Part shown: positions 9,589 to 63,983 of the stretch, in pieces
Layout of the letters: each line of letters starts with the position of its first letter
Numbering within the stretch: position 1 is the stretch's first letter
Source of the DNA: Eledone cirrhosa
Taxonomy: Eukaryota
Assembly: GCA_964016885.1 (NCBI GenBank)
Contig: OZ024756.1
Location: 44,268,001-44,332,000, forward strand
Length of the DNA stretch: 64,000 nucleotides
Direction: 5' to 3'
Notes under the pieces: model-generated
The model's database searches: none
What the model saw: the letters and a program-made list of their open reading frames with translations, nothing else
What the model was told of the DNA's origin: nothing
Made by a program: the position numbers and the translations under genes

Positions 9589-9654
9589 TATTTCATTATA
9601 CATATTTCAGGGATACCATATTAAAAATATGGCATGCCTTCGTCAGATAAAATA
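9589..9654 (-). ncRNA. Hammerhead ribozyme (F4, inverted arm)
   Basis: Reverse complement of 10180-10245. Confidence 0.8.
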
Positions 9655-10245: not shown

Positions 10246-10412
10246 AATATGGTTTTATAAATATAGTTTCCATTTGTTTAATATCGTATATCTACTCCCA
10301 AAACTTGTCGAGTGCTTTATATCAGTTATAAAATATTTACTTGTTGTAACCCAATAATTTTAAATAAAACTTTTGCATATATATATATATGTGGAAGGTA
10401 TACGGAAGGTAT

Positions 10413-10455
10413 ACGTTGCTGACGATAGCTAACAAGCTTGAAACTAGTACAGCGT
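10413..10455 (+). ncRNA. Minimal hammerhead ribozyme
   Basis: acgttg CTGACGA t agct aaca agct t GAAA ctag TA cagcgt; predicted GUA cleavage after 10449. Confidence 0.85.
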
Positions 10456-10760
10456 TCCTTTGTCAGTGTTGAACAAACGAGCAACGGTGGTTGCTAGACA
10501 CTACGGCTTAATACGGGATGTTTGTTTACAAACACAGCGAACATTATAATAAATGTTCGGTGAATCCATACGTGCATATATATATGTGTGCATGTATGTA
10601 TATATATATATACATACTACTATATGTCGGTATACATATATGTATGTACGTGTACATACTTATATTTAAGTAACAGCCGTACTAAGAGTGGGAAATGAAA
10701 TATCGTTTCATTTTTTCCGTTTATCGTTTTCGGTGCACCCGGCCGATTAACCCACTCGAT

Positions 10761-10809
10761 ATGCAAATTGGGCTACTCAGCCGTTAATATGCATAAGGTA
10801 AGTATATAC
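10761..10809 (+). promoter_or_regulatory. Candidate snRNA-type promoter cassette (octamer, PSE-like element, TATA)
   Basis: ATGCAAAT 10761-10768, ctcagccgttaa, gtatatac; the same motifs are conserved in the diverged 63-kb copies. Function is inferred. Confidence 0.4.
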
Positions 10810-10834
10810 GTTCAACAATCTGGCAGGAAGGTAT

Positions 10835-10877
10835 ACGTTGCTGACGATAACTAACAAGCTTGAAACTAGTACAGCGT
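10835..10877 (+). ncRNA. Minimal hammerhead ribozyme, second unit
   Basis: As 10413-10455 with one stem II mismatch (aact/agct). Confidence 0.75.
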
Positions 10878-11344
10878 TCCTTTGTCAGTGTTGAACAAAC
10901 GAGCAACGGTGGTTGCTAGACACTACGGCTTAATACGGGATGTTTGTTTACAAACACAGCGAGCATTATAATAAATGTTCGGTGAATCCATACGTGCATA
11001 TATATATGTGTGCATGTATGTATATATATATATATACATACTACTATACGTCGGTATACATATATGTATGTACGTGTACATACTTATATTTAAGTAACAG
11101 CCGTACTAAGAGTGGGAAATGAAATATCGTTTCATTTTTTCCGTTTATATATATATATATATATATACACCGAATTCAGGGACTAGACTCCTTCTTCCTC
11201 CCGTTTGACCTGTGCGGAATTCCTTCCTTGCTCACATTTCGACTAGGTTTGATTGTTTTTATTCTCTCTCGTTCACGATTTCACCGAACTTATATTTATG
11301 GAAATCTGGGACTTGACTCTTTCTTCCTCACTTTTCGTTGCATT

Positions 11345-16667: not shown

Positions 16668-16846
16668 CACACATAAACACATACAGACACATACACACAT
16701 ATACATATATCTCTATCTATCTATATATATATATATATATACACATACACATACAAACACATACATACACACATACATACACATACATATACATACATAT
16801 ATATATATATAATATAAGATCAAAAGATGGTTAAAGGAGTTCCATG

Positions 16847-16917
16847 TATTTTATTATGCGCATTTCAAAAACAAACATCATCATGCAATAATATTTGTGT
16901 TTTCATCAGATAAAACA
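16847..16917 (-). ncRNA. Hammerhead ribozyme in the 3' pseudo-LTR of PLE1
   Basis: Reverse complement of 22810-22880. Confidence 0.85.
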
Positions 16918-17946
16918 GGAGAACATGATATGAAGGCTAAAAAACACTTGTGGATAGTGCAGTTTTAAATCAACATATGAAAAGTGGTTTTAGATTGATG
17001 TGTGATATTGGGAAAAATATTTTATTTAGAGAGGGGGGTGGAAAGGATGAAAAAGGGGAGGAGATGAGAGGGAGAGATGGGTGATAGAGAGAAAGAGATA
17101 GTTTTTATAACTGAGAGGAGATATATTGTTTTACATAGAGAGGTTGAAAACCGTTGGAAGATAATGTATAAATTAAAAAAATTTGAAAATTAACGAAGGG
17201 AGGATATGTGCGAGAAAAAAATATTTTATTTAGGGAGGGGGTGGGTGGAAAGGATGAAAAATGGGGGAGGAGATGAGAGTGAAGGTGGAGAGGGAGAGAT
17301 GGGTGATAGAGAGAAAGAGATAGTTTTTATAACTGAGAAAAAGATATATTGTTTTACATAGAGAGGTTGAGAACCGTTGGAAGATAATGTATAAATTAAA
17401 GGAATTTGAAAATTAACGAAGGGAATTTATGTATGAAGATAGAGAGAAAAAATAATAATTGTGGATGAATATTCTAACGTCAAAAAAAGTGTATGTTGAT
17501 AAGTATTGTGGCAATTTCAAAATTAACGAAGAGAAAAATTATTAAGGTTTGTGTGTAGAAGGATTTGAGAAAAATAATGTGAAGTTAAAGTTTGTATATT
17601 GAAGGAATTAATAATATATGCGAATAAGGAGTTAATATGTATTAAGAATGAGTTCGTTGATGGGGAGAAAAAAATAATAAATTAAGGATGAAATTGAGAT
17701 TAAAAAGATTTATGATAGAGAGAAAAAAATAATAATGATTGCGGATGAATATTCTAACGTCAAAAAAACAAATGTATATGTTATGAAGGATTTTACAAGG
17801 TGAAGATAGAATGAGGGTAATGAGTAAACAAGTATTATAGAGTGTATAATGCCCTTTAAAGTAAGGTAGGAAGATGGGTATATTTTAAAGAGGTGTATGT
17901 ATATGTGCCTTTGAGAAAAGATTCTAAATTGATAAAGAATTGAATA

Positions 17947-20409
17947 TTAACTGTATACTTTGTGAAAAGTCCTATGGAATTTATGCAGGCAGATAGAAAA
18001 CAAATCTGTACGTCTATTTATTATAGAATCTAGGTTAGAGATAATGGTAAATTTTTCATTTAGGCAGAGATTACAGATTTTAGATAGAGAGCTGTTCAAG
18101 TATGAGGATTCAGAAGAAACCTTCTTCCAAAAGATGGTATATTTAATGTTTTTGTCTTTTAAGGACCATATGAGTTCTGAGAGAGCAGTGTTGGTTCTTT
18201 TAAGTTTGTATTTGAAAGATGAATGATGATTATAGAGACGAGCTTTAAAAGAGGTGGAAGTGGAGCCAAAATAGGTGAAGGAATTGGTGCTAGTTATAAT
18301 TTTACATTCATAAATTAAGTTTTTATCGAGACAATGGTTGTTGAGAGGACATTTATTTTTAATGCGGCAGTTGCAATTAGAGAGATTATTAATGAGTGAC
18401 CTAGTGTTATCTATAGAAGGAATTGGATTGGAGAAGTTGTTTGCGATAGGAATAATAGGAATAATAGTTTTTTGATTTAGAGTTGGATTATGAACATTTA
18501 GCGAAGTTGTGTTTGACGTTGTATTTGGGTTTATAGAAGTTAGCCTAGGGTTTACAATGACGTCGGGAGTACTATTACTGTTATTATGAAATTCAATGTT
18601 GGAAGAAAGAGATTTAGTATTTAGTATTTTATTGTTGTGTTTAGAGATGATGTTGGAAATATTGGAGGATGTAGAATAAGAAAATTTGATGGTGTGTTTG
18701 TTAAATATTTTACTATAGATATGTGAGGGAGGGAAGCATTTATTTAAGGCACTAAAAAATAATTTAGGAATATTGTTATTAATAGAGATGGAGAAAGGAG
18801 CATTATACCAGATTATGTTTTTGTATCTAGGTCTTTTATTAAAATTATTGGAATGATCATGATTAATTATTCTACTGTAAGTTTTTCTAGAATTTGTTTC
18901 TTTACTATATTTGATTTTATCTGGATAGCCGGCTTTAGAAAGTGCGTTATTATAGTAATTGGCGTTAGCATCAAATATGTTTTTATTAGAGGATATGTTA
19001 GATATTCTTTTTCCAATATTACTAACTATAGCATTCTTGATATTGGTAGGATGGTTAGATTTAAAGTTAACATAATTTAGGTTCTCATTGTTTTTATGGT
19101 AAGGGTAATATAGGCCAGTGTCAAGATTAAGAGATACATCCAAGAAATTAGCTAGTTTGATACTATTATCAAATTCAATTTTTAGGTTATGTTGGTTAAA
19201 GAGATTACGTATATTGTTCTTAATAATATTAAGGTTAACTATATTGCAATTTAGGATAGTAAAGAGTCCATCGTCACGATAAATTCCACCGCGAAGTTGA
19301 GGAATTTTCCGACTCAAAGAGTTCAAAATGAAGATACCAATTAAATCAGTCAATTGGGATGAATCGGATGCTCCCATTGTGATGTCGAAGTTGTTAGAGG
19401 TATCGGCTCTGGTCCAATATTCGTTGTTGAACTCTAGGATGGTTTTACGTGCGGTGAGGATGATGTGAAGTTCATCTGTGGTGATGTCAGAATATTTAAG
19501 TGCGAAAGATAGAGCATTATTGAGAAGTGAAGGCGAAATGGAGGAATAGTAGCTGGCAATATCAAATTGAATAAATTTTAGTTTGTTTTTATTATCCAAT
19601 TTGTTGAACCAGCCAATCACCTCAGAAGTACCAAACCATAAATTTAGGTTCAAAGAAGAGCAATTAGAACTAACCTGTGGGATAATTCTATCCAAGATGG
19701 CTTTATTAACAACCCCCAGATCAGATTTAGAGGGGGCGATTAATCTAACAGGTAGTTCAGTGCGAAAATTGTTTTTGTGATCCTTGAGATTTATCCTCGG
19801 AGTTCTTGGGAGGAATGGTTCGGTCTTTTTTTCAATGCCAAGTTTTGACATAATCTCAGAGGCTTCAAGGTTTATGTATTCTAAATTTTCATGGTTGGTT
19901 TTACGATACTTTTTCCTAAGTTCCTTTAGGATAAGGTTGTTATAATTATCCTTGGAAATACCATATAAGTTATTGGATTTGTCAGAGTGGACTAAAACAT
20001 TTTTTGAGGAATTTAGGTTAGAGATTGTGTTCTTGAGATTTACAAGGTGCTCTTGTTCTTTGTAAGGGTATCTCTTGAATTTAAGATTTTTTATTATTTT
20101 AGTTAATTCTTCCTCGAATTGTACTAGATTTTTGTTGGAAGGAGGATTTCGTCTAGAATTAAAAAGATGATCGAGGAAGTTATGTTCTTTGGTATGGAAG
20201 TTCCCTTTTAGGCGCTGGTCATAGAAATAGGATGTCCATCTAAGTCTTCTTACGAAGGAGTCAGTTTTTTCAATAAGAAGATTGGTGAATTCAGATTTAC
20301 CAGGTATAGGAATGTCTTTAGTTGAATTGGTTATGTTGTAATAATCCATGTTGTAGAAGAAGAGGTGAAGGACCATCAAAAGGTATCCAATATGAGAGTA
20401 AGCGCTCAA
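17947..20409 (-). CDS. PLE polyprotein: reverse transcriptase plus C-terminal GIY-YIG endonuclease (Naiad-like)
   Basis: 820-aa open frame; N-terminal STKDIPIP...FVRRLRW; RT motifs FDIASYYSSI, ITMGASDS, YRDDG, NFLDVSLNL; endonuclease CNCR..CPL..C...LIY...YFG...FKARLYNH...CNLCLNEK. The true start may be the ATG of MDYYN. Confidence 0.93.
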   Translation of the reverse strand: MSAYSHIGYLLMVLHLFFYNMDYYNITNSTKDIPIPGKSEFTNLLIEKTDSFVRRLRWTSYFYDQRLKGNFHTKEHNFLDHLFNSRRNPPSNKNLVQFEEELTKIIKNLKFKRYPYKEQEHLVNLKNTISNLNSSKNVLVHSDKSNNLYGISKDNYNNLILKELRKKYRKTNHENLEYINLEASEIMSKLGIEKKTEPFLPRTPRINLKDHKNNFRTELPVRLIAPSKSDLGVVNKAILDRIIPQVSSNCSSLNLNLWFGTSEVIGWFNKLDNKNKLKFIQFDIASYYSSISPSLLNNALSFALKYSDITTDELHIILTARKTILEFNNEYWTRADTSNNFDITMGASDSSQLTDLIGIFILNSLSRKIPQLRGGIYRDDGLFTILNCNIVNLNIIKNNIRNLFNQHNLKIEFDNSIKLANFLDVSLNLDTGLYYPYHKNNENLNYVNFKSNHPTNIKNAIVSNIGKRISNISSNKNIFDANANYYNNALSKAGYPDKIKYSKETNSRKTYSRIINHDHSNNFNKRPRYKNIIWYNAPFSISINNNIPKLFFSALNKCFPPSHIYSKIFNKHTIKFSYSTSSNISNIISKHNNKILNTKSLSSNIEFHNNSNSTPDVIVNPRLTSINPNTTSNTTSLNVHNPTLNQKTIIPIIPIANNFSNPIPSIDNTRSLINNLSNCNCRIKNKCPLNNHCLDKNLIYECKIITSTNSFTYFGSTSTSFKARLYNHHSSFKYKLKRTNTALSELIWSLKDKNIKYTIFWKKVSSESSYLNSSLSKICNLCLNEKFTIISNLDSIINRRTDLFSICLHKFHRTFHKVYS

Positions 20410-20553
20410 CCGTTAAGGAGCAAGTTAATGTAGGAGGTGAGTTTTATTGTAGTACAATAAAGCAATGCAGATATCGGATAAGAAGCACTCTACAGTTTGT
20501 AGGACTGGAGTATACATAATATAAGATCAAAAGATGGTTAAAGGAGTTCCATG

Positions 20554-20624
20554 TATTTTATTATGCGCATTTCAAAAACAAACATCATCATGCAATAATA
20601 TTTGTGTTTTCATCAGATAAAACA
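20554..20624 (-). ncRNA. Hammerhead ribozyme in the upstream pseudo-LTR of PLE1
   Basis: Same sequence as 16847-16917, offset 3707 bp. Confidence 0.85.
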
Positions 20625-22809
20625 GGAGAACATGATATGAAGGCTAAAAAACACTTGTGGATAGTGCAGTTTTAAATCAACATATGAAAAGTGGTTTTAA
20701 ATTGATGTGTGATATTGGGAAAAATATTTTATTTAGAGAGGGGGGGGGGGGTGGAAAGGATGAAAAAGGGGAGGAGATGAGAGGGAGAGATGGGTGATAG
20801 AGAGAAAGTGATAGTTTTTATAACTGAGAGGAGATATATTGTTTTACATAGAGAGGTTGAAAACCGTTGGAAGATAATGTATAAATTAAAAAATTTGAAA
20901 ATTAACGAAGGGAGGTTATGTGCGAGGAAAAAATATTTTATTTAGGGAGGGGGGGTGGGGGTGGAAAGGATGGAAAAAGGGGGAGGAGATGAGAGTGAAG
21001 GTGGAGAGGGAGAGATGGGTGATAGAGAGAAAGAGATAGTTTTTATAACTGAGAAAAAGATATATTGTTTTACATAGAGAGGTTGAGAACCGTTGGAAGA
21101 TAATGTATAAATTAAAGGAATTTGAAAATTAACGAAGGGAATTTATGTATGAAGATAGAGAGAAAAAATAATAATTGTGGATGAATATTCTAACGTCAAA
21201 AAAAGTGTATGTTGATAAGTATTGTGGCAATTTCAAAATTAACGAAGAGAAAAATTATTAAGGTTTGTGTGTAGAAGGATTTGAGAAAAATAATGTGAAG
21301 TTAAAGTTTGTATATTGAAGGAATTGATAATATATGCGAATAAGGAGTTAATATGTATTAAGAATGAGTTCGTTGATGGGGAGAAAAAAATAATAAATTA
21401 AGGATGAAATTGAGATTAAAAAGATTTATGATAGAGAGAAAAAAATAATAATGATTGCGGATGAATATTCTAACGTCAAAAAAACAAATGTATATGTTAT
21501 GAAGGATTTTACAAGGTGAAGATAGAATGAGGGTAATGAGTAAACAAGTATTATAGAGTGTATAATGCCCTTTAAAGTAAGGTAGGAAGATGGGTATATT
21601 TTAAAGAGGTGTATGTATATGTGCCTTTGAGAAAAGATTCTATCTAAAATCTGTAATCTCTGCCTAAATGAAAAATTTACCATTATCTCTAACCTAGATT
21701 CTATAATAAATAGACGTACAGATTTGTTTTCTATCTGCCTGCATAAATTCCATAGGACTTTTCACAAAGTATACAGTTAATATTCAATTCTTTATCAATT
21801 TAGAATCTTTTCTCAAAGGCACATATACATACACCTCTTTAAAATATACCCATCTTCCTACCTTACTTTAAAGGGCATTATACACTCTATAATACTTGTT
21901 TACTCATTACCCTCATTCTATCTTCACCTTGTAAAATCCTTCATAACATATACATTTGTTTTTTTGACGTTAGAATATTCATCCGCAATCATTATTATTT
22001 TTTTCTCTCTATCATAAATCTTTTTAATCTCAATTTCATCCTTAATTTATTATTTTTTTCTCCCCATCAACGAACTCATTCTTAATACATATTAACTCCT
22101 TATTCGCATATATTATCAATTCCTTCAATATACAAACTTTAACTTCACATTATTTTTCTCAAATCCTTCTACACACAAACCTTAATAATTTTTCTCTTCG
22201 TTAATTTTGAAATTGCCACAATACTTATCAACATACACTTTTTTTGACGTTAGAATATTCATCCACAATTATTATTTTTTCTCTCTATCTTCATACATAA
22301 ATTCCCTTCGTTAATTTTCAAATTCCTTTAATTTATACATTATCTTCCAACGGTTCTCAACCTCTCTATGTAAAACAATATATCTTTTTCTCAGTTATAA
22401 AAACTATCTCTTTCTCTCTATCACCCATCTCTCCCTCTCCACCTTCACTCTCATCTCCTCCCCCTTTTTTCATCCTTTCCACCCCCCCCCCTAAATAAAA
22501 TATTTTTTTCCTCGCACATATCCTCCCTTCGTTAATTTTCAAATTTTTTTAATTTATACATTATCTTCCAACGGTTTTCAACCTCTCTATGTAAAACAAT
22601 ATATCTCCTCTCAGTTATAAAAACTATCTCTTTCTCTCTATCACCCATCTCTCCCTCTCATCTCCTCCCCTTTTTCATCCTTTCCACCCCCCCCTCTCTA
22701 AATAAAATATTTTTCCCAATATCACACATCAATCTAAAATCACTTTTCATATGTTGATTTAAAACTGCACTATCCACAAGTGTTTTTTAGCCTTCATATC
22801 ATGTTCTCC

Positions 22810-22880
22810 TGTTTTATCTGATGAAAACACAAATATTATTGCATGATGATGTTTGTTTTTGAAATGCGCATAATAAAATA
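22810..22880 (+). ncRNA. Hammerhead ribozyme in the inverted pseudo-LTR of PLE1
   Basis: tgttttat CTGATGA aaac...gttttt GAAA tgcgca TA ataaaata; palindromic stem III ATGCGCAT; predicted AUA cleavage after 22872. Confidence 0.87.
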
Positions 22881-23001
22881 CATGGAACTCCTTTAACCAT
22901 CTTTTGATCTTATATTATGTATACTCCAGTCCTACAAACTGTAGAGTGCTTCTTATCCGATATCTGCATTGCTTTATTGTACTACAATAAAACTCACCTC
23001 C

Positions 23002-23103
<102 letters not shown>

Positions 23104-23177
23104 CATACATATATTCATGTGTACACATAAGAAGAGGGGGGGGTTAGTGAAATGGAATTTTACCTCCGAGTGTTAAT

Positions 23178-25463
23178 TCATTTTTTCGTGTTCAATAGTG
23201 GTTTAAATTTTTCAATGAAGAATTCTTCTTTATATCTGCGGAAATGTTCGTTATCGGACCATATCTTGAAGAAAGGGAAGATTGTGAATTTTCCCTTCCC
23301 GCATGATGCAAAGTGTGCGCTACATGTGGTATTTCTGACTGTGGGGTCTTTAATTTGTTGTTTATGTACCCGGACTCTATCATGTAGTCCCGTTCCGGTT
23401 TCCCCAATGTAATACTCTTTACACTGTGGACATGTTGCGCAATATATTAGGTTTTTCGTTTTGCAGTTCATGTTTGCATTGACCTTGAAATTATCATGGT
23501 TTTTGAAGGACAACTGTTTGCCCTCTTCGATGAGTTCACAGGTTCCACATCTAGGGTCCCCGCATTTCGTCACTTGCATTGATTCCATGTTGGTCGTAAA
23601 TTTTGCCTTGGTAATTAGTTTTTTAAGGTTGGGTGCTTGGCGTCTGCTATAAATTATCTGTGTGTTTTTTAAGAGTGCATTCATTTTGGTAGATTGCTGT
23701 AGAATCGGGAGATACTGTTTAGCAGTTTTCACAATGTTGACGTTCCCTGGGTTGTGAGTGATGACAAAAGAGATAGCAGGGTTTTCTTTTTTATGTTGTG
23801 GGTTTGGTTTTCTCAGTGTTGTTATTGGGATGTTCTTAACCTTGGAGATGGCTGCGTTGATGAGTTTCATCGGGTTTTCTTGTTTTTTAAGGAATTTTTT
23901 CAGGTCACATAATCTTTTTTCTTGTAGTACGGGGTGTGTTGCTATAGTGCAGATGCGCCTTGCCATGTTGAAGGGAATGTTCCTTTTCGTATGTGAGGGG
24001 TGTGCTGACCGGAAATTTAAGTATTGGTGTGTGTCAGTGGGTTTGCAAAATAGGTCTGTTATGATATTTTCCCCTTCTTTAATGATGAGGATATCTAGAA
24101 AGGGCAGTTCCTTTTCGTTACATTCCATAGTGAATTGTATAGCTTCATGAAGCCTGTTTAAGATCGAATAAAACTTTTGTAGGTCTGTTTGGCTTCTGTT
24201 CCAGAAGATGAAGCAGTCATCTAGGTAACGTTTCCAGTTTTTATTAATGTAGAAGGCGAAGTCGTGACTGAATGTTATCTGTAGTTGGGAATATAATTTT
24301 GCCTCTAAGTGACCCATAACGAGCGTTGAATATGTAGGGGCCACTTTGGTACCCATGGCTGTTCCTTTTATTTGTAGATAAAGTTCGTTGTCAAAGAGGA
24401 AGTGGTTGTTTTCCAATACTAATTTAAGTCCTTCCAAGATGAATTCTTTGGGGAATCTTTCTGTAATGTGACTTGAGTGTTTTGTAATCCAGAAGTCCAC
24501 AGCTTCAATCCCTAGGTCATGTGGGATGTTAGTGTACAGGCTTATTACATCAAAATTGACTAGGATTGTATCCTGGTGTACTTTTTGGGGGATATAGTTA
24601 AGGAATTCCATATCATCTCTGATGTAGCTTGGAACTTTTTTACATAGGGGTTTGAGTATGATGTCTAATAGGTTGCTTAGACGTTGTGTGCTTGAGGCTG
24701 GGCCAGCAATAATGGGGCGTAATTTTAAGTCTGTCGGTTTTGGTGCTTCGATGTATGATGTATTTTTCCCTTTTATGTTGTTTTGGATTTCTATGGATTT
24801 GTGAATTTTTGGTAATCCATAGAAATTGCTGGTTTTCATTTCGAAGTTGGTTAGGTAATCTACTTCTTTTGGTGTTAGGTTGTTTTGGTACTTTGTTGTT
24901 AGTTTGCCTATTTGGTTCCTCGATTTCCTTTCTTCGTTTTTAATGATTTTCCTGTAGAAGTTTTCGTCATTCAAGTGTGCTAGAACCATATCTTTGTAGT
25001 GGTTTATGTCCATGATGACGATTGCTCCACCTTTGTCCGCTTCTTTTATTATTATTGAGGAATCCCTTTGTAGCTTGTTCAATGCGAGTAGTTGGTCTGT
25101 AGGGATGTTGCGTTTGTGTTTCGTCTCGGCCGTATTTGTACGTGCTGATCGGCGAAGGCAGGTTATGTACTCCTCCAGGTATTTATCTCTATTTAGCGGG
25201 GGTGTGAAGTTCTTTTTGTTTTTCACCAGTGATTCTTTCTCGTATTGTACACCCTGAAAGAATTCTCCTAAGCGTAATTTTCGACAGTATTCTTCTCTGT
25301 CTTTTATAACATCGGCTGTATCTGCTTTCGGAGTGGGAGTGAACTTCAGTCCATTTTCTAACAATTGTATTTCTTGTTGTGTTAATTTCTTGGCTGATAT
25401 ATTGATTATTTTTGGTTCGATTGGTTCTTTCTCGTCAGGTGCCACTTGAAAGATGGTGCTTTT
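23178..25463 (-). CDS. PLE polyprotein RT plus GIY-YIG (Neptune-like), 5'-truncated
   Basis: RT motifs NFDVISLYTNIP, GTAMGTKVAP, RYLDDCF, LPFLDI, KPTDTHQYL; Cys-rich linker CGDPRCGTC; endonuclease NLIYCATCPQC..YYIGETG...RVRVH. The frame stays open upstream of 25445 (KSTIFQ) up to the (TA)n junction at about 25463. Confidence 0.92.
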   Translation of the reverse strand, partial: KSTIFQVAPDEKEPIEPKIINISAKKLTQQEIQLLENGLKFTPTPKADTADVIKDREEYCRKLRLGEFFQGVQYEKESLVKNKKNFTPPLNRDKYLEEYITCLRRSARTNTAETKHKRNIPTDQLLALNKLQRDSSIIIKEADKGGAIVIMDINHYKDMVLAHLNDENFYRKIIKNEERKSRNQIGKLTTKYQNNLTPKEVDYLTNFEMKTSNFYGLPKIHKSIEIQNNIKGKNTSYIEAPKPTDLKLRPIIAGPASSTQRLSNLLDIILKPLCKKVPSYIRDDMEFLNYIPQKVHQDTILVNFDVISLYTNIPHDLGIEAVDFWITKHSSHITERFPKEFILEGLKLVLENNHFLFDNELYLQIKGTAMGTKVAPTYSTLVMGHLEAKLYSQLQITFSHDFAFYINKNWKRYLDDCFIFWNRSQTDLQKFYSILNRLHEAIQFTMECNEKELPFLDILIIKEGENIITDLFCKPTDTHQYLNFRSAHPSHTKRNIPFNMARRICTIATHPVLQEKRLCDLKKFLKKQENPMKLINAAISKVKNIPITTLRKPNPQHKKENPAISFVITHNPGNVNIVKTAKQYLPILQQSTKMNALLKNTQIIYSRRQAPNLKKLITKAKFTTNMESMQVTKCGDPRCGTCELIEEGKQLSFKNHDNFKVNANMNCKTKNLIYCATCPQCKEYYIGETGTGLHDRVRVHKQQIKDPTVRNTTCSAHFASCGKGKFTIFPFFKIWSDNEHFRRYKEEFFIEKFKPLLNTKK

Positions 25464-25585
25464 ATATATATATATATATATTAATATATATATAATGAAA
25501 CACGGTTAGCGTTAATTGAGGTTTTTTTTTTATTATAAGAATGCGTACAGAGGCACAGTAGCGATGTGCGTGCGTGTGCGTGTGC

Positions 25586-59542: not shown

Positions 59543-59615
<73 letters not shown>

Positions 59616-59618
<3 letters not shown>

Positions 59619-59888
59619 CGAAGGAAATGTGGTAAGGAACCAGGTGGACCATAACGCACCAAAGTACTCAATACTTAGGGTAGTAGAGTGGGTAATAGGA
59701 ACAAGTAAGACCCCGACGGCTGAGCTCAAGCCGTTTCGACGGCTAATTCTGAGTCCAGAATTAGCCATCGAAACGGCTTGAGCTCAGCCGTCGGGGTCTT
59801 ACTTGTTCCTATTACCCACTCTACTACCCTAAGTATTGAGTACTTTGGTGCGTTATGGTCCACCTGGTTCCTTACCACATTTCCTTCG

Positions 59889-59891
<3 letters not shown>
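59616..59891. repeat. Fold-back element with 136-bp arms and a 4-nt loop, in (TA)n
   Basis: 59616-59751 versus 59756-59891; one mismatch seen. Confidence 0.92.
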
Positions 59892-59956
<65 letters not shown>

Positions 59957-59962
<6 letters not shown>

Positions 59963-61345
59963 AAATAACAGGAGGCTGGACTGGTGTAAATCCTTGAAAG
60001 GTTTATTATACTATGATCATTTCAATGACCGGGTTCCATATGAATCCGGTGATATCATCAGGTATTGGAATATAACAAAGGAATATGTAAAAACCATGGG
60101 TCCGAAAAATCAGAGACAGGGACAAAGAGGACGACTGACCAACTAGCTGCTTGGGCAATCGCCCTCAAAATGGTGGCAACTTAATCTACTAATGAACATC
60201 TGGTGAGGGGGCGAAGGCTTATAATGCACTACCACCTCTCCGCCAAAGAAAAAGGGGAAGAAAGAAAGAAAGGGAGAATGAAGTCAGCGTAAGGGTCACA
60301 CTACCTTCATGCTAGAAAATGCCGCGAAAAAATGCTATTCCAAAGAATCTATAATGGGTGTCTGTATGGTCTAATGTGTGAACCGAAGATTGGAACGTTA
60401 AACTTATGTTGCGAGTTATAGGATGAAATTAAATTAAATTAAAAATATTAAATTGAAAAATGATAAATTGAAAAATAAGTTATTAGAGAATTAAAGGTTA
60501 AGATAGCGAGATTTATTTATTTAATGAACTTACGGAGAGAGTCTTATATGAAAAAATTTATCTCGGTAAGATATTAGGATGGGATATAGAGTAAAGATTT
60601 CGATTGGGAGTCCCAGCCAGCACCCCCTCTCCCCACCATGAGTCAGCCAGTCTCGAGTGGTATCGTCCAGCGAAAGATATGGAAATTAATTTTTCCGAGT
60701 AATCTAGGAACGTAGCTACCTTAGGCCTCGGGAGCGCTAGCGGGAACTTCACAATTTCGACAGGCCATCGTCTATACCAAACGAATACTATTAAATCACA
60801 CACGAGGGGTTTATTTACGTGCCAGTAGAGGCATGATACAGCTAATAGTTATGCCTAAACTTGGAGTTTATAGGTACAAGTATAATATGGCGGCCAAAAC
60901 AGGCGGCGCGGTGGGACCGGAGCAAAGCAACCGCTCCGAGTAATTTCGTTTACCGAAAGAGGAGAAATTTATTTTTCCGAGTGCCCAGCGCGCAGCCGGG
61001 AAAAGCCACCACACAAGTCGAAGGTAGCAACCCAATGAAAAGTGTAAATAGACCAAAATTATTTTAAAGTCCCAGTTAGTCCGGGTTATAAGTAGTGTGG
61101 TTCTCAGGTTTATTATACTATGATCATTGAAATGATCATAGTATAATAAACCTTTCAAGGATTTACACCAGTCCAGCCCCCTGTTATTTTATTTTATTTA
61201 TAATTAACTCCGTATTCGCACCACCAACTACACAAACGAAGATGGGTGAACTGCACTGCGTTGAGTACTCTTCACAATATTACACCAGGATTGACAATAC
61301 GGAATGACCAGTTCTATCCAGTGGTGAACCAACAAACCTAAAGAA
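59957..61345 (-). mobile_element. Non-autonomous PLE-type element: unit, start of a second tandem repeat, then inversion and tail
   Basis: 59957-60027 is inverted at about 61125-61195; 61106-61128 directly repeats 59999-60021; flanked by (TA)n. Confidence 0.75.
60008..60065 (-). ncRNA. Hammerhead ribozyme
   Basis: Minus strand: atac CTGATGA tatc accgg.ttc..atggaa.ccggt catt GAAA tgatca TA gtat, then AATAAA; palindromic stem III ATGATCAT. Confidence 0.8.
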
Positions 61346-61553: not shown

Positions 61554-61729
61554 AATAAATTCTGTATACCCGCATTTCCATTTCATAAACTTCTTCTCCA
61601 TATATATATATATATAAGTTGAAAAAAATGAAAACGAAATTTCATTTCTCACTCTTAGTATGGCACTTACTTAAATGTAAGTATGTATGTATACGTACAT
61701 ACATATATGTATACAGACGTACAGTAGCA

Positions 61730-61806
<77 letters not shown>

Positions 61807-61990
61807 ATACATATACATATATATACACACATGCACACAGGTACACATACATATATGCACGCATCAGTTTAGCCGACGTTTATTATAACGCAGCTTTGTT
61901 CGTTTGTTTGTCAACAAACAGAACAGCCTGAATTTATGCCATACGGTGTTAAGGCAACCACGTCACCTTTTTGTTCAACACTGACACAGG

Positions 61991-62035
61991 AACGATGTAC
62001 TAGTTTCAAGCTTGTTAGCTATCATCAGCACCGTT
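61991..62035 (-). ncRNA. Minimal hammerhead ribozyme
   Basis: Reverse complement of 63609-63653. Confidence 0.85.
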
Positions 62036-62269
62036 TACCCATCTGCCAGATAGTTGAACGTTCGAAAGTATATACTTTCCTTATGAAAATTAACGGCTGA
62101 GCAGCCTAATTTGCATATTGAGTGAGTTAAATCGGTCAGGCATTCCGAAAACGATAAGTTGAAAAAAATGAAAACGAAATTTCATTTCTCACTCTTAGTA
62201 TGGCACTTACTTAAATGTAAGTATGTATGTATACGTACATACATATATGTATACAGACGTACAGTAGCA

Positions 62270-62338
<69 letters not shown>

Positions 62339-62504
62339 ACACACATGCACACAGGTACACATACATATATGCACGCATCAGTTTAGCCGACGTTTATTAT
62401 AACGCAGCTTTGTTCGTTTGTTTGTCAACAAACAGAACAGCCTGAATTTATGCCATACAGTGTTAAGGCAACCACGTCACCTTTTTGTTCAACACTGACA
62501 CAGG

Positions 62505-62549
62505 AACGATGTACTAGTTTCAAGCTTGTTAGCTATCATCGGCACCGTT
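62505..62549 (-). ncRNA. Minimal hammerhead ribozyme, CCGATGA core variant
   Basis: tcatcgg on the plus strand equals a U4>C change. Confidence 0.65.
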
Positions 62550-62783
62550 TACCCATCTGCCAGATAGTTGAACGTTCGAAAGTATATACTTTCCCTATGA
62601 AAATTAACGGCTGAGCAGCCTAATTTGCATATTGAGTGAGTTAAATCGGTCAGGCATACCGAAAACGATAAGTTGAAAAAAATGAAAACGAAATTTCATT
62701 TCTCACTCTTAGTATGGCACTTACTTAAATGTAAGTATGTATGTATACGTACATACATATATGTATACAGACGTACAGTAGCA

Positions 62784-62847
<64 letters not shown>

Positions 62848-63013
62848 TATACATATATATACACACATGCACACAGGTACACATACATATATGCACGCAT
62901 CAGTTTAGCCGACGTTTATTATAACGCAGCTTTGTTAGTGAGAAATGAAATTTCGTTTTCATTTTTTTCAACTTATCGTTTTCGGTATGCCTGACCGATT
63001 TAACTCACTCAAT

Positions 63014-63062
63014 ATGCAAATTAGGCTGCTCAGCCGTTAATTTTCATAAGTAAAGTATATAC
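63014..63062 (+). promoter_or_regulatory. Candidate snRNA-type promoter cassette (octamer, PSE-like element, TATA), present in each full unit
   Basis: ATGCAAAT 63014-63021, ctcagccgttaa 63029-63040, gtatatac 63055-63062; function is inferred. Confidence 0.4.
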
Positions 63063-63094
63063 TTTCGAACGTTCAACTATCTGGCAGATGGGTA

Positions 63095-63139
63095 AACGGT
63101 GCTGATGATAGCTAACAAGCTTGAAACTAGTACATCATT
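63095..63139 (+). ncRNA. Minimal hammerhead ribozyme
   Basis: aacggtg CTGATGA t agct aaca agct t GAAA ctag TA catcatt; predicted cleavage after 63132. Confidence 0.82.
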
Positions 63140-63305
63140 CCTGTGTCAGTGTTGAACAAAAAGGTGACGTGGTTGCCTTAACACCGTATGGCATAAATTC
63201 AGGCTGTTCTGTTTGTTGACAAACAAACGAACAAAGCTGCGTTATAATAAACGTCGGCTAAACTGATGCGTGCATATATGTATGTGTACCTGTGTGCATG
63301 TGTGT

Positions 63306-63359
<54 letters not shown>

Positions 63360-63608
63360 ATATATATATATGGATGCTACTGTACGTCTGTATACATATA
63401 TGTATGTACGTATACATACATACTTACATTTAAGTAAGTGCCATACTAAGAGTGATTAATGAAATTTCGTTTTCATTTTTTTCAACTTATCGTTTTCGGT
63501 ATGCCTGACCGATTTAACTCACTCAATATGCAAATTAGGATGCTCAGCCGTTAATTTTCATAAGGAAAGTATATACTTTCGAACGTTCAACTATCTGGCA
63601 GATGGGTA

Positions 63609-63653
63609 AACGGTGCTGATGATAGCTAACAAGCTTGAAACTAGTACATCGTT
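63609..63653 (+). ncRNA. Minimal hammerhead ribozyme
   Basis: aacggtg CTGATGA t agct aaca agct t GAAA ctag TA catcgtt; 7-bp stem I; predicted cleavage after 63646. Confidence 0.87.
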
Positions 63654-63822
63654 CCTGTGTCAGTGTTGAACAAAAAGGTGACGTGGTTGCCTTAACACCG
63701 TATGGCATAAATTCAGGCTGTTCTGTTTGTTGACAAACAAACGAACAAAGCTGCGTTATAATAAACGTCGGCTAAACTGATGCGTGCATATATGTATGTG
63801 TACCTGTGTGCATGTGTGTATA

Positions 63823-63884
<62 letters not shown>

Positions 63885-63937
63885 TGGTACTGTACGTCTG
63901 TATACATATATGTATGTACGTATACATACATACTTAC

Positions 63938-63983
<46 letters not shown>

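Follow-up and report, generated by a model that had tools for sequence, protein, structure and literature searches.

The array at 61614-63942 of the window (the whole stretch of 64,000 nucleotides of Eledone cirrhosa DNA that was analysed) is, judging by its sequence, probably one insertion of a non-LTR retrozyme family whose likely mode of copying is in trans, by the RT-endonuclease of a Penelope-like element (PLE) acting on a predicted RNA circle of unit length. The family is a young, abundant, non-coding non-LTR retrozyme repeat with clear PLE insertion signatures, and its existence as such is unsurprising, because retrozymes are known from molluscs and many other phyla. What is new is that the PLE tail rule, namely one short 3' end paired with one that is 61 nt longer, is shown here for retrozyme insertions. 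At stake are the questions of which retrotransposon moves animal retrozymes and whether a circle is the template, and one genome here combines thousands of young copies bearing a PLE-specific tail signature with an intact, recently amplified candidate enzyme, which makes both the helper and the template question directly testable by a purified-protein assay like the one published for a lizard PLE. The features concerned are listed below, unit coordinates (q) being counted from position 63133 (q1).

10408-11148, plus strand: array of subfamily B, with a 422-nt unit, about 74% identical, identical helices II and III, and its long end in TA
17947-20412, minus strand: intact 821-aa Hydra-clade PLE frame (RT plus GIY-YIG-type C-terminus), the candidate mobilising enzyme, outside the array
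61600-61613, no strand: remnant of the left (TA)n target, from sequence
61614-62936, minus strand: minus arm of about 2.6 units, with its 3' end at 61614 (long end, q358) and 5'-truncated at q95-98
61614-61674, minus strand: 61-nt PLE-type tail (q298-358), confined to the left outer end (tail concept as in PMC8557442 and PMC11167929)
61991-62035, minus strand: intact type I hammerhead motif (site 62028), predicted cut after 61998
62505-62549, minus strand: hammerhead motif (site 62542) with a broken core, U4 to C at 62541 (CCGAUGA)
62937-62939, no strand: head-to-head inversion junction, 3-nt overlap
62937-63942, plus strand: plus arm of about 2 units, 5'-truncated at q319, its 3' end being the short end (q297-300)
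63095-63139, plus strand: hammerhead motif (site 63102) with an intact core and a helix I mismatch at 63137, predicted cut after 63132
63133-63646, plus strand: predicted monomer of 514 nt with a GC content of 33%, its inner (TA)n run lying near 63305-63371
63609-63653, plus strand: intact type I hammerhead motif (site 63616), predicted cut after 63646
63943-63978, no strand: remnant of the right target, (TA)18

The layout given by the original prediction is confirmed in its main points: the units are arranged head-to-tail with a cut-to-cut length of 514 in both arms, the strand switches at 62936/62937 (the arms overlapping by 3 nt, 62937-62939), (TA)n is present at both array ends, and the absence of an ORF holds, as the longest stop-to-stop frame spans 95 aa and is mostly microsatellite. 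No RT or GIY-YIG frame of an autonomous PLE lies in the array, which lacks LTR structure and any coding frame and is made of short, low-GC (33%) tandem units with one type I hammerhead motif per unit, as is typical of non-LTR retrozymes. The spacing of hammerhead sites varies between 514 and 540, because every unit contains a variable (TA)n run of its own. The outer ends are not equivalent, the left being the long "tail" end (q358) and the right the short end (q297-300), and target-site duplications are indistinguishable inside (TA)n. About nine private substitutions in total are carried by the window units, hence this copy is already decaying. Its inverted arms of about 1 kb are 95% complementary, so that a read-through transcript of either strand would pair with itself, and such fold-back would likely block ribozyme folding; the window copy is damaged and probably a poor source of the predicted monomers.

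The hammerhead consensus (CUGAUGA..GAAA..UA plus a GUA triplet) was recovered, with predicted cuts after 63132 and 63646 as proposed. The claim of one HHR in each unit stands for the motif sequence, which every unit contains, but not for its integrity, as only sites 62028 and 63616 are fully intact. The core itself is kept at three of the four window sites (broken at 62542 only), and helix I of site 63102 has 4 contiguous pairs versus the usual 7. The plus arm, in contrast to the minus arm, carries two core-intact sites in tandem (63616 and 63102, the latter with the helix I mismatch), and 63133-63646 is the only window unit bounded by two such sites; longer arrays are numerous at other loci. 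The ribozyme is of type I, with a 7-pair helix I that extends further, a 4-pair helix II with a basal U-U mismatch, and a helix III consisting of one pair and a palindromic CUAG loop. Because only one base pair and a palindromic loop make up helix III, two ribozymes are probably required, and by analogy with axolotl ribozymes the predicted cleavage may depend on dimers: the helix III of HHR_Amex1 is likewise one pair and a palindromic tetraloop, helix II of HHR_Amex2 likewise has a basal U-U mismatch, and the dimeric form is the better-working one in both (Cervera and de la Pena, 2020; PMC7229834).

The fold of the ribozyme has a z of -3.7, with none of 200 shuffles as good. Rfam returned a sub-threshold match to Hammerhead_HH9 (18.5 bits against a gathering threshold of 52, E 0.023), an Rfam scan of 10 kb gave no hammerhead match, and the miRNA matches obtained from Rfam were dismissed as microsatellite noise. 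In a gapless alignment of 12 variants from related families, both sides have changed in 8 of 14 pairs, the paired fraction is unmatched by any of 500 shuffles, and slid controls are all much lower; at the base of helix II, 10 of the 12 variants lack a pair. Because these sequences are related and were picked by hand, the covariation is only supportive and is given no probability, yet at the level of sequence it would imply selection on the ribozyme fold. Across 86 loci the core is intact at 222 of 260 sites, a figure biased upward, since about half of the loci were picked by an intact core. Against the retrozyme reading, the MFE structure of the monomer lacks an active hammerhead core, and helices II and III are weak; the energy of the circular fold (-167.9 kcal/mol, 69% paired), computed without shuffled controls, is exaggerated by the TA run.

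Genome-wide, the 32-nt ribozyme core has 13,392 exact matches in 3.0 Gb (reversed control, 0), a copy count that supports the proposal of a non-coding hammerhead family like the non-LTR retrozymes, tandem in layout and dispersed in high copy number. The exact core is shared by subfamily A (units of about 460-570 nt) and subfamily B (422 nt), and the copies, found on many contigs, have 3' ends at fixed places and 5' ends at varied ones, as expected of a mobile, multi-locus element. The stretches sampled comprised 46 that cover the clusters listed first on contig C1, taken in positional order, 20 around the best matches and 6 long arrays, to which 60 further stretches (from lists of control-position ends and variant copies), 29 loci with cut-site ends and 90 PLE-centred loci were added; the sampled loci are a small share of the family.

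The evidence for the moving machinery lies in the insertion ends. There are two 3' end positions, q~297 (short) and q~358 (long), which are 61 nt apart and followed by (TA)n, while the 5' ends are scattered. Of 48 pairs of facing outward ends from 98 loci, 47 combine a short end with a long one (26 of 26 in the position-ordered subset), a count that retains three duplicate pairs from L098, doubtful pairs at L094 and L045, and the lone short-short pair (L159), which seemingly spans two insertions. A further 60 loci gave 25 of 25, so that the rule known from PLE-mobilised elements is followed by 72 of 73 facing pairs, none of which is long-long. Mobilisation of the PLE type, as originally proposed, is hence supported by the tail rule, the TA target and the 5' truncation. 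PLEs are marked by an inverted, 5'-truncated copy and by a tail confined to one end, and the target of the Hydra clade is (TA)n (Craig et al., 2021; PMC8557442). In vitro, both target strands are cut and extended and the PLE tail is the interval between two RT start sites (Frangieh et al.; PMC11167929), which is why two 3' ends at a distance of 61 nt fit a PLE tail.

The inversion had been taken as a sign of a circular template, a reading that is not upheld: inverted 5'-truncated copies are standard among coding PLEs (PMC8557442; PMC3846280), including one in the window, and as a generic PLE feature the inversion is evidence of the PLE machinery and not of a circle. Inversion junctions usually show an overlap of 1-6 nt, in contrast to five loci (L085, L090, L100, L112, and L120), at which both arms stop at or near one unit position, mostly within a local palindrome; these same-position junctions may result from fold-back priming. 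At three loci (L082, L111, and L113) later insertions interrupt the array, and as those in L082 and L113 sit in the (TA)n run of the unit itself, the unit offers a landing site for TA-targeting elements.

In the preferred explanation, multimeric transcripts would self-cleave at GUA, probably with two ribozymes, and a host ligase would close the monomer into a circle. A PLE protein would then nick both (TA)n strands, one cDNA would be primed from the short site and another from the long site, each RT would go round past the ligated cut site a varying number of times, and the two cDNAs would be joined head-to-head by microhomology. A more specific version, in which the family records rolling-circle, twin-primed RT, with a Hydra-clade PLE priming both (TA)n strands at sites 61 nt apart on one ribozyme-made circle and rolling outward both ways, is put forward tentatively and has somewhat more against it than for it. 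If true, the mobilising enzyme of an animal retrozyme would be identified although the two have no sequence in common, and the PLE tail rule would hold even across fused insertions of two different elements. Speaking against ribozyme processing, only one of nine predicted Xenopus retrozyme dimers was cleaved in a test reported on bioRxiv (10.64898/2026.07.22.740005).

The template question turns on the homogeneity of the units and on the position of their ends. In 17 loci with at least two full units, divergence between full units amounts to 0.24% within an arm (132 pairs), 0.42% between arms (44 pairs) and 3.4% between loci (97 pairs), and unit length is uniform within most arrays. All 11 units of L156 (464-466 nt), in both arms, share one variant, which occurs nowhere else in 100 of 103 matches listed. 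At 33 family-A loci with both strands, the median distance between arms is 1.4% versus 4.1% to other loci; the partner arm is the nearest neighbour in only 12 of the 33, and at a few loci the arms are as distant as unrelated copies. Two unit types alternate in L032 and L084, which fits a two-unit template. Rolling is supported by the identity of haplotypes across whole arrays and by read-through of the cut site, and a circle would yield this pattern of one unit read repeatedly across an intact junction; the uniformity might instead come from repeated jumps along a linear molecule or from the copying of an array that was uniform beforehand.

The ends themselves tell against cleaved linear monomers as the main template, because 5' ends do not pile up at the cut: 29 lie exactly at the predicted position genome-wide versus 30 at one control position, a comparison that assumes equal background copy number and in which about 5-6 of the 29, like 5 of 20 control loci inspected, are small deletions. 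More 5' ends had seemed to lie at the cut site, but this excess was an artefact of a query beginning at the cut and vanished with a multi-unit reference. The missing pile-up fits an uncleaved linear template equally well and also counts against the circle. It is shared by the alternative that survives best, though we consider it unlikely, namely that the family is a non-autonomous PLE copied from uncleaved or otherwise linear RNA, with multimers arising by read-through transcripts and RT jump-back, and circles absent or a side product. In vitro, PLE insertion is independent of ribozyme cleavage, as the PLE RT takes unprocessed RNA and ribozyme mutants insert normally (PMC11167929); moreover, coding PLEs make partial tandems and inversions with no known circle, and the two-unit alternation of L032 and L084 could derive from a source array. 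Such copying is harder to reconcile with arrays of up to at least 11 near-identical units, in which both arms share locus-private variants and which require repeated reading of one unit. If linear RNA were copied with 5' truncation, arrays would be expected to shrink in each generation and unit-private changes of the kind found in the window array to be passed on, and the covariation, in implying a ribozyme fold under selection, also speaks against this alternative.

For the helper, a Hydra-clade PLE with the 821-aa frame is the best-supported candidate, and we lean slightly towards it. The window holds a complete-looking element of this clade at 16816-23004, lying in (TA)n, with hammerheads at 16909 (-), 20616 (-), and 22818 (+). 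It has an inverted arm, a tail of about 95 nt and a TA target, and obeys the short/long end rule. Inspection of the translation by eye and comparison with PMC8557442 identified the motifs RWT, DKS, CNCRIKNKC, CNLC, and CLH, and with them the C-terminal EN, the CxCX5C linker and the CxxC/CxH, RWK-like and DKT-like motifs of the Hydra clade, whose hammerhead and TA target are present as well; Pfam gave no match for the 821-aa frame. The family numbers at least 150 copies, many with the full 821-aa frame, and is young, as 150 of 150 scored matches are 99-100% identical.

Two of the 46 loci of the first sample are fusions of the repeat with this element. In L106 the repeat adjoins codon ~342 of the Hydra-clade frame with no TA in between, the outer ends being a Hydra short end on one side and a repeat long end on the other. 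In L103 a Hydra long end with a frame fragment is fused to the repeat, again with no TA at the junction, and the short end belongs to the repeat. The missing Hydra part was not found on the far side in either, and no further fusions were found in 60 more loci, 29 cut-site ends or 90 PLE-centred loci; two of the latter have a repeat copy nearby (L233, joined through TA, and L216). The fusions in L103 and L106 could be mimicked by later deletions, and against a specific Hydra helper the repeat is also fused to other elements (L124 and L036). The unit has no significant shared sequence with the window Hydra element (best E 0.55), and neither there nor, at a fixed place, in the 90 PLE loci, a limited sample of PLE families, was a 3' end or pseudo-LTR shared with an autonomous PLE.

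That the unit is instead the pseudo-LTR or 3' end of an unseen coding PLE, the arrays being its heavily 5'-truncated products, is highly improbable. Type I hammerheads with a palindromic helix III do occur in PLE pseudo-LTRs, and the genome is rich in PLEs (59,430 and 10,597 first-look candidates, 90 PLE-centred loci being examined), yet in the loci examined (66 unit-centred stretches, with which two PLE proteins were compared by tblastn, a further 60 compared with a small DNA library, and the 90 PLE-centred loci) the unit was never found at a fixed place behind a PLE stop codon, and what lies upstream of a unit is another unit, up to at least 12 in a row. Pseudo-LTR pieces of a longer coding PLE, which the original prediction had itself named as its refutation, were thus not encountered in these loci. 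An ordinary satellite expanded in situ by unequal crossing-over, or a fold-back artefact of assembly, is scarcely credible and already largely refuted, since for all the tandem layout, the TA-rich and repeat-dense assembly and the perfect palindrome close by (59551-59956), the copies are dispersed over many contigs with fixed 3' and scattered 5' ends, each arm stops at a defined site of its own and has private changes, and identical anatomy recurs in 72 of 73 pairs.

Among known systems, the non-LTR retrozymes of axolotl and newt (HHR_Amex1, HHR_Amex2, newt satellite 2), mussel and coral are likewise non-coding, tandem, low in GC and present in thousands of copies (Cervera and de la Pena, 2020; PMC7229834). 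The unit is longer here, with 420-570 versus about 170-400 nt in those retrozymes (PMC7229834), while retrozyme units of 51-972 nt are given by Li et al. (10.64898/2026.07.22.740005). In contrast to the retrozymes as described in PMC7229834, the present family has an internal (TA)n and a GUA triplet, and its strict TA targeting, inverted arms and one-sided tail are not known from the descriptions given there. The EN+ Hydra-clade PLEs share with it the (TA)n target, 5' truncation, an inverted truncated copy, a tail at one end and a 3' hammerhead, whereas the repeat differs from them in its lack of a frame, a tail of 61 nt versus 30-40, and many full tandem units (Craig et al., 2021; PMC8557442). 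Non-autonomous elements of Chlamys, e.g., MRC1, are likewise non-coding PLE dependants with multicopy head-to-tail insertions, but mostly have no canonical hammerhead and resemble their autonomous partner at the 3' end (PMC8557442), whereas the repeat has a hammerhead and no such resemblance was found for it.

PLEs were called only "a strong candidate" as the mover of retrozymes by Cervera and de la Pena (PMC7229834), and vertebrate retrozymes were concluded to be non-autonomous PLE passengers by Li, Clavereau, and Pollet (10.64898/2026.07.22.740005). The same conclusion is reached here on a different basis, namely insertion anatomy and fused insertions, whereas that of Li et al. was co-occurrence and pseudo-LTR homology, the latter not being found here. 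No published hammerhead retrozyme family of such a kind was found for cephalopods or octopus in a search of mostly open literature, and a Repbase or Dfam entry may exist; the main text of PMC7229834 mentions neither cephalopod nor octopus, and Craig et al. name Octopus once, for Naiads (PMC8557442).

Several other elements were observed in the window and the sampled loci. A perfect, equal-armed 201-nt palindrome occupies 59551-59956 between two (TA)n runs, and in L082 its sequence is also inserted into the TA run inside one repeat unit. It is followed at 59957-61200 by a non-coding element that has inverted ends; the hammerhead motif of this element, at 60061 (-), has a 6-nt palindromic helix III. 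A further hammerhead family, with an AUA triplet and a TATGTA or TATATA helix III, is found at 9597-9646 (-), 10188, 45145, and 47453 (+), once as an inverted pair. Adjoining the Hydra element in (TA)n, a 5'-truncated PLE at 23114-25505 (-) has a 775-aa open frame with RVT_1 and GIY-YIG matches, and from its motifs it may be Neptune-like. A second tandem hammerhead family, with a 310-nt unit, a CGCG loop and U-U at the base of helix II, lies at 6600-9300 of L084, where it has an inverted arm and ends that differ between the two arms. Members of a related family, in which a canonical G-C pair closes helix II and the triplet is GUC or GUU, occur at L036:7462-7960 and L151:510-590, and the copy in L036 is fused to a family-A arm.
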